64,000 nucleotides of DNA, taken from Escherichia coli O127:H6 str. E2348/69. Its GTDB lineage: Bacteria > Pseudomonadota > Gammaproteobacteria > Enterobacterales > Enterobacteriaceae. How positions within the stretch are numbered: the stretch's first letter is position 1; each line of letters begins with the position of its first letter. The translations under genes and the position numbers were made by a program. This document shows positions 53,566 to 57,607 of the stretch, piece after piece. The notes under the pieces were generated by a model, which saw only the letters and a program-made list of their open reading frames with translations, was not told where the DNA came from and did no database searches. Where the stretch lies: the NCBI RefSeq assembly GCF_000026545.1, contig NC_011601.1. One strand, 5' to 3'.

Positions 53566-54234
53566 TCATTCTCCTTTGATGCGAATGCCAGCGGCGCGGA
53601 TAGATTTCCATTGTTCCCATATGCGGTTGAAGTCTGTTCCTGATAAGGTCGCGTTACGGTATCCAGTTTCGGTGCGCAATCCTTCAAGCGTCGATTTGGA
53701 AATACAAATTGAATGCATTACCCATGATTCGAACAAATCACGCTCCCGGGCTTCGCAACTTTGCTTACTCATCTCTTCGATACGTTCAGCCATCGCAGCA
53801 CACTCTTCAAAGTTACTTAATGCTTTTCGCTCCCATTCGGCGCATTGTTTTCCAAGCTCTGCAATCAGCTTGTCTTTGCCTTCCAGCTCAACTCGCAGCT
53901 TCCCTACCGTTAGCGCAATATCCTCGTTCTCCTGATCACGGCTTTTGATGTATTGCTGGTTTCTTTCCCGTTCATCCAGCAGCGCCAGCACGGTAGCTGG
54001 ACTGGCTGCGGCGATGAATTCAGCATTGGCCTGCTGTTCCATTTGGAAATCTTCATCGAAACCGCTTTCAGGATGCGCTCCTTCAATTATGCAAATGGGA
54101 ATATATCCAGCAGCCTCGCGATGAATTAGCGCATCATCACAATCAAATCGGCTCTCTCCATATTCGAGCGACCATACACCACACGTTGCTTTTTCTGCCT
54201 TGGCACGCAGTGCCTCATAGTCAATCTTGCTCAC
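53566..54234 (-). CDS. Ead/Ea22-like protein with coiled-coil C-terminal half
   Basis: N-terminal [18 protein letters not shown]... is the conserved Ea22-type start; probable GTG start at 54234 six nt after RBS aaggagg and overlapping upstream stop (alternative ATG at 54267). Confidence 0.6.
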   Translation of the reverse strand: MSKIDYEALRAKAEKATCGVWSLEYGESRFDCDDALIHREAAGYIPICIIEGAHPESGFDEDFQMEQQANAEFIAAASPATVLALLDERERNQQYIKSRDQENEDIALTVGKLRVELEGKDKLIAELGKQCAEWERKALSNFEECAAMAERIEEMSKQSCEARERDLFESWVMHSICISKSTLEGLRTETGYRNATLSGTDFNRIWEQWKSIRAAGIRIKGE

Positions 54235-54812
54235 TGGTTGCCTCCTTTGCGAATCTGTTCCGCCCATTCTTCAAGGGATTTCTCCGCATATTCACCGGAC
54301 AGGCCATCAATCGGGTGCAGTTCATTAGCCAACTCTTCTTTCGCTGACAGAATCATGCGTGTAACGTCGAAAACTTCACGCAAAGACTTATTGATAAATC
54401 CGTGGTTGAAAGCAGCAGCAAGACGGCTGGCGGTATAGTTAATCCCCTCGTTGCGTGCTTCTGCACGAATTTCAGCCAGAAAAGCATCGGTAGCTGGGGT
54501 GTCTGATTGCAGAAACTTTGCGCGATAGTCATTCCACCCTCTTGCATACATGGGATTAACTTGCACTCCATCTTTTACGCAATATGCCTGCCCTCCACGG
54601 TTGATAACCTTGATTTCGTCCATAGCGCCAGACTTCAGCCCCGCATTCTCCGCTGCCAGCGCCGCGCACTTGGCCTCAGCTTCAGCAAATTTACGCACCA
54701 TATATTCAGCATTTGTTTCGTTAACCTTTAAATCACATGAGATGCATTTACCTTTCAGAAATCCATCCATCTCAATTAGTGTCATTCGTTTCATTTCTTC
54801 CCACTCCGCCAC
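54231..54812 (-). CDS. hypothetical phage protein (193 aa)
   Basis: Long ORF in lambda b2/ea region, tightly packed with neighbours; no recognisable motif. Confidence 0.5.
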
Positions 54813-54973
54813 ATCGCATTCAGATATTTGTTTTGATTCACTGACGGAGAAGAATTTCTCTTAAGCAATTCCTCTCTCGATGGCATTGGCTTTACGCGTT
54901 GGCGAATAATCATTTCTGCCGGAAGAATGCCGGGATTGTATGCAAGTCCTCTCATGGTAAATTCCTCAGTCAT
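54791..54973 (-). CDS. hypothetical small phage protein (about 60 aa)
   Basis: Internal Met ([15 protein letters not shown]...) of ORF 54791..55105 gives a start just past the upstream stop. Confidence 0.3.
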
Positions 54974-55259
54974 TACTGATAGCGCCATAGCGTGAGCGGT
55001 AATTACGCAGGCGCGGGTCAATTTCAGGGAAGTGTGTATATGCGGCTTTGCGGAATGGTCGTATTGATGTCTGGTAAATTCGCTCTCGTTCTTCTTTCTC
55101 TGCAAGCCATATACAGTGGCGAAATTCCTTTTCCTCTTTCGTTTCCTGCGGTAGCGACATTATCCGGTCGTAGTTTTTCCTGAATTTATCCAGCACCTCC
55201 GATACGGAATTGCCGGAACAGCGGCGCGGGTCATCCGCACCATACTGAGGCGCTGGCAT
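54966..55259 (-). CDS. hypothetical phage protein (97 aa)
   Basis: ORF immediately downstream of ssb. Confidence 0.45.
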
Positions 55260-55272
55260 GATTTTCTCCTGA

Positions 55273-55779
55273 TTAAATTGCGTGAATAGCGTGACGAGGG
55301 AAGGGGAGAGTTACTGGTGCAAAGGGTATATCGTCGTCAAAATCCATCGGAGGTTCGTTGTGTTGTGCTGGTGATGATTGCTGCTGTGGCTTCTGTGATT
55401 GCCTGCTGGCTGCTTGTTGTTTGCTGTCGCCAATGCCGCCAAGCATTTGCATCACGCCATTAATTCCGACATGAACCTCGGTTGTGTAACGGTCTTGCCC
55501 TGACTGGTCTTTCCACTTTCTGGTTCTCAGCATTCCCTCGAAATAAATCTGATCACCTTTTTTCACATACTGCCCCACGACCTCAGCCAGTTTCCCGGAT
55601 ACAGCAACACGATGCCATTCAGTCAATTCCTTTTGCTCGCCAGTATTTTTATCTCGCCATTGTTCTGACGTGGCTATTGTCAGGTTAGCGAACGCTGTTC
55701 CTGATGGTGAGTATCGAACTTCCGGGTCTTGTCCTACCCGACCAAGGATAATCACCTTATTTACGCCTCTGCTTGCCAT
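55273..55779 (-). CDS. ssb: phage single-stranded DNA-binding protein
   Basis: 168 aa starting [23 protein letters not shown] (OB fold), Gln/Pro-rich linker, acidic tail DFDDDIPF. Confidence 0.9.
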
Positions 55780-56487
55780 TTATGCTGCCTGTTTTAGTTC
55801 GTTAACTCTGATGTTCATTACCTGAACACATTTAGCCTGCGCCTCCTCGTTGCCAGCCATTAATTGCCAGTCACGCTGATAACGCTCGATGAGTTTTTTC
55901 TTGTCAGTTTCTGTCGCTGCATAATCGCTGAAGTCTTTCAGGATTTGTTCGCAGTCAACCGATGGAGATTTCTGGTTGGTATTTTCTGGTGATGGTTTGT
56001 TATCTGATGCTGGGATTGCCCATCCCGGCAGTGATGGAGGTAGCCAGTAAAATCCTGTTCCATCCTTCAGTTTTGCCCTGTGCCACCCCTGCTTTTTATC
56101 GAGAGATGTTTGTGCGAAACCTTCCTCAAGGTTATACAGATACCGACCGATTCCCCACTGAACGGCAGCGCGCTTCATTGCACCGGAACGACCGCCTTTG
56201 ACAGCTTCTACCTGCGTGTTTTCAGCAGCATCCCATTTGGTTACCCATTCGGAATCAATCCTGATTGATATGCCGCATTCAACGCCTCCGTTGTTGGGAA
56301 TATCGCGGTATTCATTGCGCCATCCTGCTTTGCCGCAAACATCGTCCAGACGTTTCATGATTGCCCGGTTCGTGACATAAGCCAGCACCATAGCCCACAC
56401 CTTGCCATCGCGTGTTTTACCGCTTTGCTGTATTCGCCATTCGATATCTTCAGGGCTGAATGGCTCATCGAATTTGTTCAAATCCAT
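55780..56487 (-). CDS. single-strand annealing recombinase, Rad52-like N-domain with Erf-like C-terminus
   Basis: 235 aa; N-terminal half has Rad52/Sak-type motifs (GISIRID, AMKRAAVQWGIGRYLY); C-terminal 50 aa (EQILKDFSDYAATETDKKKLIERYQRDWQ...) resembles P22 Erf C-terminus as recalled; adjacent to ssb. Confidence 0.7.
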   Translation of the reverse strand: MDLNKFDEPFSPEDIEWRIQQSGKTRDGKVWAMVLAYVTNRAIMKRLDDVCGKAGWRNEYRDIPNNGGVECGISIRIDSEWVTKWDAAENTQVEAVKGGRSGAMKRAAVQWGIGRYLYNLEEGFAQTSLDKKQGWHRAKLKDGTGFYWLPPSLPGWAIPASDNKPSPENTNQKSPSVDCEQILKDFSDYAATETDKKKLIERYQRDWQLMAGNEEAQAKCVQVMNIRVNELKQAA

Positions 56488-56586
56488 AATTCACCTCAGA
56501 ATGGACACGGCCCAAGGAAATAACGCTGATTTAATACTTCGACTCGGGACAAATTAAGGCATACCCGCATTCCTTCGCGGTCGCCA

Positions 56587-56745
56587 TTATGGCGATACCA
56601 GAGAGCTTTCTGCGTGTACATGCGTCTCTGTAACTTGCTCTCCTTCACTGTGGTTGCAAGTGACATGAATATCTCCTTCGTTACCGATTAATTCTTTCAT
56701 CTGACGAATGAATTCTTCGTCTGAGCAGTTATCTGTAAAACTCAT
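56587..56745 (-). CDS. small acidic hypothetical protein (52 aa), coupled to kil
   Basis: Hand-translated ORF MSFTDNCSDEEFIRQMKELIGNEGDIHVTCNHSEGEQVTETHVHAESSLVSP; its ATG overlaps the kil-like stop (ATGA). Confidence 0.3.
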   Translation of the reverse strand: MSFTDNCSDEEFIRQMKELIGNEGDIHVTCNHSEGEQVTETHVHAESSLVSP

Positions 56746-56894
56746 TTCCTGCGATACCACGGAAGGTTGATAGCTGATTTCATCGCTTTATTTGCTTCAA
56801 GCCACATTTTGGAATCACCAATAAATCTGGCTATTACTGCTTTGTTCTGTGCAGCACGAAGCATCTGGTGATTGATGGCTATTTCATTGCGCAT
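56742..56894 (-). CDS. kil: Kil-like host-killing small protein
   Basis: Hand-translated 50 aa MRNEIAINHQMLRAAQNKAVIARFIGDSKMWLEANKAMKSAINLPWYRRK; FIGD-x-KM motif and position next to cIII as in lambda. Confidence 0.45.
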   Translation of the reverse strand: MRNEIAINHQMLRAAQNKAVIARFIGDSKMWLEANKAMKSAINLPWYRRK

Positions 56895-57013
56895 AACGCC
56901 TCCAGTTGTTTCTTTGCTGCTCTGATTAATTGTTTAACTCGGCGTGATAATTCAGATTCGTGCGGGTAGAAAGCGGACATGACGCCGCTACCCGCGAGCT
57001 GAAAGTGCATCAT
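56879..57013 (-). CDS. cIII: cIII-like FtsH inhibitor
   Basis: 44 aa MMHFQLAGSGVMSAFYPHESELSRRVKQLIRAAKKQLEALCAMK after RBS aaggag; pattern resembles lambda CIII (AG...V...P.ES.L..R). Confidence 0.5.
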   Translation of the reverse strand: MMHFQLAGSGVMSAFYPHESELSRRVKQLIRAAKKQLEALCAMK

Positions 57014-57088
57014 GGGTAACTCCTTATATTTGATTGCATAACGAAAACGCCTCGAGTGAAGCGTTATTGGTATGCGGTAAAGCCGCAC

Positions 57089-57457
57089 TCAGGCGGCCTT
57101 GATAGTCATATCATCTGAATCAAATATTCCTGATGTATCGATATCGGTAATTCTTATTCCTTCACTACCATCCATTGGAGGCCATCCTTCCTGACCATTT
57201 CCATCATCCCAGTCGAACTCACAAACAACACCATATGCATTTAAGTCTTTCGAAATTGCTATAAGCAGAGCATGTTGCGCCAGCATGATTAATACAGCAT
57301 TTAATACAGAGCCGTGTTTATTGAGTCGGTATTCAGAGTCTGACCAGAAATTATTAATCTGGTGAAGTTTTTCCTCTGTCATTACGTCATGGTCGATTTC
57401 AATTTCTATTGATGCTTTCCAGTCGTAATCAATGATGTATTTTTTGATGTTTGACAT
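57089..57457 (-). CDS. highly acidic 122-aa protein in the lambda ea10 slot
   Basis: ORF with RBS gagga; C-terminal EFDWDDGNGQEGWPPMDGSEGIRITDIDTSGIFDSDDM; low GC; terminator directly upstream. Confidence 0.6.
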   Translation of the reverse strand: MSNIKKYIIDYDWKASIEIEIDHDVMTEEKLHQINNFWSDSEYRLNKHGSVLNAVLIMLAQHALLIAISKDLNAYGVVCEFDWDDGNGQEGWPPMDGSEGIRITDIDTSGIFDSDDMTIKAA

Positions 57458-57475
57458 CTATTCATATCCTCATAG

Positions 57476-57503
57476 ATAAAAAATCGCCCTCACATTAGAG
57501 GGC
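57476..57503 (-). terminator. intrinsic terminator between the 156-aa moron and the 122-aa gene
   Basis: Minus-strand hairpin gccctc-taatgt-gagggc followed by gatttttt. Confidence 0.7.
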
Positions 57504-57607
57504 AAAGAAGATTTCCAATAATCAGAACAAGTCGGCTCCTGTTTAGTTACGAGCGACATTGCTCCGTGTATTCACTCGTTGGAATGAATACACAGTGCTT
57601 ATTCGTA

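Follow-up and report, generated by a model that had tools for sequence, protein, structure and literature searches.

The ea10 gene of a lambdoid prophage of Escherichia coli E2348/69: a conserved acidic DUF2528 protein that may inhibit a host nucleic-acid-handling protein

Background

In bacteriophage lambda, antitermination by the N protein lets RNA polymerase pass the terminators of the pL operon, and one of the genes found in this operon is ea10. In this work we analyzed the copy of ea10 that is present in a window of 64,000 nucleotides (nt), that is, the whole stretch of DNA examined, from Escherichia coli O127:H6 str. E2348/69 (NC_011601.1, assembly GCF_000026545.1). Its product, Ea10, is a member of the DUF2528 family, and we propose, with a rough probability of 0.35, that it is a dimeric acidic protein that acts as a decoy for, or inhibitor of, a conserved nucleic-acid-handling protein of the host; the mechanism is one that we infer.

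Ea10 has been without an assigned function for about fifty years, in spite of its abundance and high conservation (95% identity or more in around 200 records of lambdoid and Stx phages). As an early protein it is abundant enough to have once been mistaken for the kil product (PMC3961180), it was found to be non-essential in a CRISPR interference map of lambda (PMC10695390), and in work on lambda the gene is commonly removed or serves as a site for insertions, without any remark. No functional study of Ea10 or of DUF2528 was found in the searchable literature, where the role is called "not fully understood". The lambda two-hybrid paper counts one Ea10 interaction in its main text and lists none in its supplementary tables (Table S4, "in network: no"; PMC3224144); in the filtered table, no partner among the lambda proteins and no self-interaction is listed for Ea10. 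Upstream of ea10, lambda encodes LPR1/PreS, an Hfq-dependent small RNA whose 3' end is at the terminator tL2a (bioRxiv 10.1101/2024.10.31.621285; PMC12197685).

Besides lambda Ea10 itself and the OB-fold single-stranded-DNA-binding proteins, two groups of described proteins are close points of comparison. Ocr (T7 gp0.3) and ArdA are, like Ea10, small, very acidic and early; they are dimeric, as is predicted for Ea10, and Ea10 is in addition reported to be abundant. They have, however, no sequence or structural similarity to Ea10, for which a mixed alpha/beta fold is predicted that includes a conserved Gly/Pro/Trp loop, and genes of the ArdA type are common on plasmids whereas DUF2528 genes are not. 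The second group is formed by the RecBCD inhibitors (lambda Gam, T7 gp5.9 and P22 Abc2), which are found in the same kind of neighbourhood as Ea10, i.e. early recombination or replication modules: the DUF2528 gene lies by gam in lambda, in one operon with abc2 in the window, near Mu Gam in Mu-like phages and, in one case, after DNA polymerase A. In T7, gp5.5 and gp5.9 are encoded just after the DNA polymerase. No homology or fold match links Gam, gp5.9 or Abc2 to Ea10, and given that Ea10 co-occurs with these inhibitors instead of replacing them, it probably has a different target.

Results and discussion

The open reading frame is ea10 of a lambdoid prophage

The gene and the signals that flank it are the following.

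57089..57457, minus strand: ea10, 122 amino acids (aa) plus stop with an ATG start, orthologue of lambda Ea10 and member of Pfam DUF2528
57467..57471, minus strand: Shine-Dalgarno sequence GAGGA, 9 nt 5' of the ea10 ATG, read from the sequence and the same in lambda
57478..57566, minus strand: homologue of the PreS/LPR1 small RNA, near-identical to the lambda ral-ea10 spacer, with an approximate 5' end
57505..57484, minus strand: hairpin of the intrinsic terminator tL2a, followed by T6, from a terminator scan; it is the 3' end of PreS and ends about 20 nt 5' of the ea10 ATG
57046..57065, minus strand: terminator-like hairpin just 3' of the ea10 stop and before cIII, from a terminator scan, conserved in lambda; termination is predicted

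The identification of this open reading frame (ORF) as ea10, in a lambdoid prophage, is practically certain. The predicted protein and the ea10 product of J02459 (33536-33904) are identical at 120 of 122 positions (98.4%), the substitutions being S70K and N84D. An earlier note on this DNA had remarked that the frame occupies the position and has the length of lambda ea10 and had suggested the alignment as a check; both points hold, the gene being placed between tL2a and cIII-kil as in lambda. The two loci share the length of the gene, its position in the operon (N ... tL2a/PreS - ea10 - cIII - kil), the ribosome-binding site and the flanking terminators. At the DNA level, the minus strand from about 57597 to 57050, around 550 base pairs (bp) that include the whole spacer 5' of ea10, is about 97% identical to lambda. 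The homology ends just 5' of this spacer, where lambda has ral and orf28 and the window has instead an ORF of 156 aa. Downstream, the cIII-kil allele of the window differs from that of lambda, and an Erf/Rad52-type annealing protein, a single-stranded-DNA-binding protein (SSB) and Abc2 are encoded in place of lambda Red/Gam.

The profile searches agree with this identification. The protein matches PF10800 (DUF2528) over model positions 1-104 of 104 (independent E-value 1.1e-46) and PHROG 646, a family of unknown function, over positions 1-122 of 122 (E-value 2.4e-70), and it carries all the signature residues of DUF2528 (D22, F37, E90-G91, G97, G100 and the EGWPxMDGSxGI loop). A search of the NCBIfam profiles with Ea10 gave no match, and among the PADLOC defence profiles no family was found at an E-value of 0.01 or better. 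By tblastn, 215 of 50,697 phage records encode a protein that matches Ea10, around 200 of them at 95% identity or more; the latter include lambda, 434, 21 and many Stx1 and Stx2 phages. The ea10 gene and the DUF2528 family were thus already known, and the presence of the gene in a lambdoid prophage is ordinary.

In J02459 the gene bears the label 'ea10 (ssb;122)', and many phage records name the product 'single-stranded DNA binding protein'. If this historical label is taken at its word, Ea10 would be a genuine SSB, which would also suit its location beside recombination genes. We regard this as scarcely credible: no SSB family of Pfam or NCBIfam matches the protein, the model shows a fold other than an OB barrel, the low pI of 4.3 speaks against binding to single-stranded DNA, and a separate bona fide SSB is encoded in the same operon. 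The likeness of Ea10 to the OB-fold SSBs (TIGR00621/PF00436) comes down to the inherited annotation and an acidic C-terminal segment, and it differs from them in profile, in predicted fold and in its acidic overall charge. No experimental basis for the 'ssb' label was found in the searchable literature, and the label should be dropped.

Expression of ea10 and constancy of its surroundings

The PreS/tL2a element differs from that of lambda at only two bases, both of them in the loop of the terminator hairpin, and the PreS region is predicted to fold much more stably than shuffled sequences do (z = -4.7). No Rfam model matches the small RNA 5' of ea10. A scan of the sequence between the upstream terminator and ea10 revealed no promoter-like site, and hairpins occur on both sides of the gene (tL2a and 57065..57046), so ea10 is bracketed by terminators. 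From this anatomy of terminators and operon, taken together with the established biology of lambda, it follows that expression of ea10 should depend on N-dependent read-through past tL2a. The earlier note had likewise placed the gene directly after a terminator and under the control of N, and the tL2a hairpin with its T6 upstream and the location of ea10 in the pL operon, downstream of N, bear this out.

The surroundings of ea10 were compared in 81 loci from close relatives, which are near-identical E. coli prophages. An N-like ORF is found upstream of ea10 in 71 loci, and one of two cIII-kil alleles follows the gene in all 81, the cIII allele of the window being present in 28. In contrast, the slot between N and PreS/ea10 is variable: it is occupied by ral in 24 of the 81 loci, by the 156-aa ORF in 10, and elsewhere by small ORFs (98, 86 and 149 aa). 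The gene and PreS therefore form a constant block of the backbone beside a variable cargo slot, and ea10 is not itself the cargo.

Conservation and charge in the DUF2528 family

The calculated isoelectric point (pI) of the translated ea10 product is 4.31, and its 23 Asp and Glu residues against 9 Lys and Arg residues give a net charge of -14, of which -10 is located in the C-terminal half and -4 in the N-terminal half. This supports the description given in the earlier note, in which a strongly acidic protein of 122 aa was reported at 57089-57457 with a C-terminal half rich in Asp and Glu; the peptide quoted there corresponds to residues 80-117.

Homologues were collected with HMMER from 1.84 billion cluster representatives, searched exhaustively; 244 clusters were obtained at an E-value of 0.001 or less, nearly all of them stand-alone proteins of 110-140 aa. 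A set of 200 full-length homologues has a median pI of 4.4, with 4.05-4.83 as the 5th-95th percentile range, and a median net charge of -14. Since these homologues, many of them only 30-50% identical, are as acidic as the protein of the window, the acidity of the prophage copy is not accidental.

Residue conservation was measured on an alignment of 132 sequences. The most conserved positions, each at 90% or more, are D22, F37, E90, G91, G97 and G100, followed by a second tier formed by Y7, N35, W38, R44, F81, P93, D96, S98 and I101. Two motifs stand out: V-E-I-D-H, where strand 2 ends, and E-G-W-P-x-M-D-G-S-x-G-I, which precedes the last strand of the core. At 12 positions of the alignment an acidic residue is present in at least 60% of the sequences.

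Predicted structure and quaternary arrangement

With the alignment of 132 sequences as input, AlphaFold2 models Ea10 as a compact alpha/beta domain (predicted local distance difference test, pLDDT, 96.2; predicted template modelling score, pTM, 0.88) in which a beta hairpin is followed by four main helices, with a short additional turn at residues 83-85, then by a long loop that is ordered, and lastly by one more strand. Given that the domain is modelled with very high confidence, the acidic C-terminal half would be structured and not a floppy tail.

When two copies of Ea10 were fused through a Gly-Ser linker of 30 residues and modelled with a matched alignment, the pTM was 0.81 despite the disordered linker, and residues 117-122 of each copy turned into beta strands. 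Practically all the 132 aligned sequences have hydrophobic residues at positions 117 and 119. These models suggest that Ea10 is probably a homodimer joined by its C-terminal strand, and each particle would carry a net charge of about -28.

A Foldseek search of AFDB50 retrieved only DUF2528 proteins, which come from Proteobacteria, Bacteroidota, Campylobacterota and Desulfobacterota. For practical purposes the predicted fold is an orphan, unlike that of Ocr, ArdA, Gam or other DNA mimics of solved structure.

Two structural candidates were examined and rejected. An EF-hand-like calcium loop at residues 82-93 was suggested by a weak match to aequorin (E-value 0.87); by eye, the residues do not fit the canonical pattern of the EF-hand loop, and the segment is missing from half of the family. 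Mimicry of the C-terminal tail of SSB by the motif FDSDDM was discarded because the motif is not C-terminal and is located in a well-ordered part of the model.

Genomic contexts of distant relatives

In the loci examined, DUF2528 genes are always found in early accessory or DNA-metabolism modules, e.g. in the lambdoid pL operon by cIII, kil and gam or abc2. A DUF2528 gene is present in the early region of Mu-like phages of Burkholderia and Stenotrophomonas and of Mu-like prophages of Salmonella and Oceanobacter; there it is preceded by the transposase and a MuB-like ATPase, and Mu Gam, an RdgC-like gene, GemA and Mor are close to it. On a metagenomic contig (L007, 3818-6342) the gene overlaps the stop codon of DNA polymerase A, genes for a 5'-3' exonuclease, a ligase and an SbcC-like protein are close by, and this arrangement suggests translational coupling to the replication module. 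Its neighbours on another metagenomic contig are MazG, ThyX, Dam and a clamp loader. When the distant members of the family were compared by tblastn with cultured phages, only lambdoid, BcepMu-like and Stenotrophomonas Mu-like phages were matched.

Other arrangements were also observed. Two metagenomic phage contigs carry tandem DUF2528 paralogues (L008, 2647-3368; L011, 4610-5408), and in each pair the EGWPxMDGS loop of the upstream paralogue is lost or degraded, which hints, as far as sequence can indicate, at a heterodimer with one degenerate site. On one short contig, a Band_7/SPFH gene is found immediately upstream of the DUF2528 gene.

A possible role for Ea10 and the evidence that bears on it

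The proposal that Ea10 is an inhibitor or decoy is based on the abundance of the protein, its early timing, its dispensability in the laboratory, the conserved charge, the predicted dimerization, the lack of a partner in the filtered two-hybrid table, and the constant presence of replication and recombination neighbours in unrelated types of phage. The lack of a lambda partner in that table fits weakly with a target in the host. The gene itself is one of the delayed-early, non-essential genes of the pL operon and should be read only when RNA polymerase, with the help of N, passes tL2a and with it the 3' end of PreS. In the mechanism that we envisage, Ea10 would be made in large amounts early in infection and would act stoichiometrically by binding a conserved host protein, the candidates being nucleases, factors of defence or repair, and nucleoid proteins. 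The contact would involve a putative conserved acidic surface and also the conserved site that D22/H23 and the loop E90-G-W-P-x-M-D-G-S-x-G-I make up, and the outcome would be that the replication and recombination of the phage DNA are protected or favoured.

Several observations weigh against this proposal. The searches by sequence, profile and fold did not relate Ea10 to any of the known DNA mimics or anti-restriction proteins, and no significant match was obtained in the PDB with the Ea10 sequence, the family profile or Foldseek. The dimer comes from an artificial linker fusion and was judged from pTM alone. The acidic DWDDGNG cluster (residues 82-88), to which the earlier note had drawn attention, is an insertion that only about half of the family members have. 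As has been described, ea10 belongs to the conserved backbone, whereas many anti-defence genes are variable cargo. Only 19 of 72,556 plasmid records carry the gene; in all 19 the product has 95% identity or more to that of lambda, and many of the records have the size of lambda. In the searchable literature no experiment that links Ea10 to a target was found. Finally, the residues G91, G97, G100, P93, W92, F37, D22, E90, D96 and S98 would suit a ligand, metal or catalytic site as much as a surface for protein binding.

This last point leads to a serious rival, to which we assign a clearly smaller chance than to an inhibitor: Ea10 could be a ligand-binding protein or a small enzyme, with a conserved pocket that would accommodate a metal or a nucleotide-like molecule and that might be formed by Y7, D22, H23, N35, F37, W38, R44, F81, E90, W92, D96 and S98. 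Under this explanation the protein might act, for example, as a sponge for a signalling nucleotide of host immunity, or act as a catalyst whose substrate is a nucleotide or DNA.

Taken broadly, the possibility raised in the earlier note, a DNA mimic or anti-restriction factor, agrees with the decoy or inhibitor proposed here; its narrower form has to be considered separately. A classical mimic of this kind would imitate B-form DNA as Ocr and ArdA do, block type I (or other) restriction-modification systems and complement Ral. The strong acidity conserved in the family, the predicted homodimer, the early and abundant expression (PMC3961180), the position of ea10 next to ral in lambda, and the constant location of the gene in early DNA-metabolism regions are all in line with it. 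We nevertheless consider it unlikely, because ea10 is absent from plasmids other than lambda-like ones and occurs independently of ral, and because the protein has a discrete conserved site and no relation in fold. The check for similarity to Ocr, ArdA and Gam that the earlier note had suggested was negative both by sequence and by predicted fold, and there is no relation to ArdB/KlcA either; ea10 is kept whether or not ral is present (24 of the 81 close loci have ral), and the conserved residues form a discrete Gly/Pro/Trp loop with three acidic residues and not a diffuse charge. True anti-restriction genes are common on conjugative plasmids, and the near-absence of DUF2528 from plasmids indicates that the family is phage-specific and outside the anti-restriction repertoire of plasmids. 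Decades of work on restriction of lambda credit alleviation to Ral and not to Ea10, which also counts against this explanation. The same note had held that identity to a characterised protein of unrelated function would speak against an anti-restriction role; no such identity was found, Ea10 being a protein that is named and not characterised.

Three records of the PLSDB database, NZ_CP104294.1, NZ_CP068597.1 and NZ_CP082339.1 (Stenotrophomonas, Paenibacillus and Salmonella, respectively; 48,499-48,502 bp), encode an Ea10 that is 98.4% identical to the query, as is that of lambda itself. Since the size of these records equals that of the lambda genome, the three 'plasmids' are probably contamination with lambda control DNA.

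Returning to the proposal of an inhibitor or decoy, a broader and still more tentative version would see in Ea10 and DUF2528 the first representative of a new fold family of dimeric acidic early phage proteins, which would neutralize a conserved host protein of nucleic-acid handling or immunity, or soak up an immune signal. If this were true, a function would be given to one of the last abundant early proteins of lambda that lack one, and to a family common to lambdoid phages, Mu-like phages and some uncultured phages with their own replication genes, in several bacterial phyla. To what was known of Ea10, the present analysis adds a confidently predicted fold without structural relatives, a probable dimer, a charge and a motif (D22/H23, EGWPxMDGSxGI) conserved across phyla, and the observation that DUF2528 travels with phage DNA-metabolism genes and not with plasmids. 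Assembled in this way, these features make a long-standing gap in the knowledge of lambda cheap to test, and if a host target were found, the result would concern not only lambda but also the Stx phages found in pathogenic E. coli.

Operon neighbours of ea10

The remaining features of the region, from cI to the recombination module, are listed in the direction of transcription.

59771..60592, minus strand: cI, from PHROG and NCBIfam scans
58848-59690, minus strand: gene for a 280-aa Bro-N/DinD-like protein, between cI and pL/N, in the place of rexAB in lambda
58628..58600, minus strand: promoter-like site, where pL is expected
58137..58493, minus strand: N-like antiterminator gene (PHROG 271, E-value 5.9e-25), with an uncertain start codon
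57608..58078, minus strand: ORF of 156 aa, called a 'moron' in the earlier note (PHROG 1636, unknown function), in the slot where lambda has ral
56879..57013, minus strand: cIII homologue, 44 aa from an internal ATG (PHROG 550, E-value 2.6e-13)
56742..56894, minus strand: kil homologue, 50 aa (PHROG 2055, E-value 1.2e-35)
53566-56760, minus strand: recombination module 3' of kil, not lambda Red, which starts with two small ORFs of 'recombinase' PHROGs
55780-56487, minus strand: Erf/Rad52-type annealing protein, from profile scans
55273-55779, minus strand: true SSB (TIGR00621, 166.9 bits against a cut-off of 53.95), 1.3 kb downstream of ea10 in the same operon
54966-55259, minus strand: Abc2 anti-RecBCD protein, followed by two ORFs without an assigned family

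In one more explanation, Ea10 would have an SPFH-like fold and modulate the decision between lysis and lysogeny by acting with the adjacent cIII on HflK/HflC-FtsH. No significant match of Ea10 to the SPFH/Band 7 domain was found by profile or by structure, and we judge this role to be very improbable.

The 156-aa ORF that occupies the ral slot has no match in Pfam, NCBIfam or PADLOC. The 280-aa protein, whose gene is followed by its own terminator (58839..58822), contains a Bro-N domain, resembles DinD below the NCBIfam cut-off, and matches the PADLOC candidate defence family PDC-S13 with an E-value of 2e-86; judged by these matches, its gene may be a candidate defence gene expressed from the prophage.
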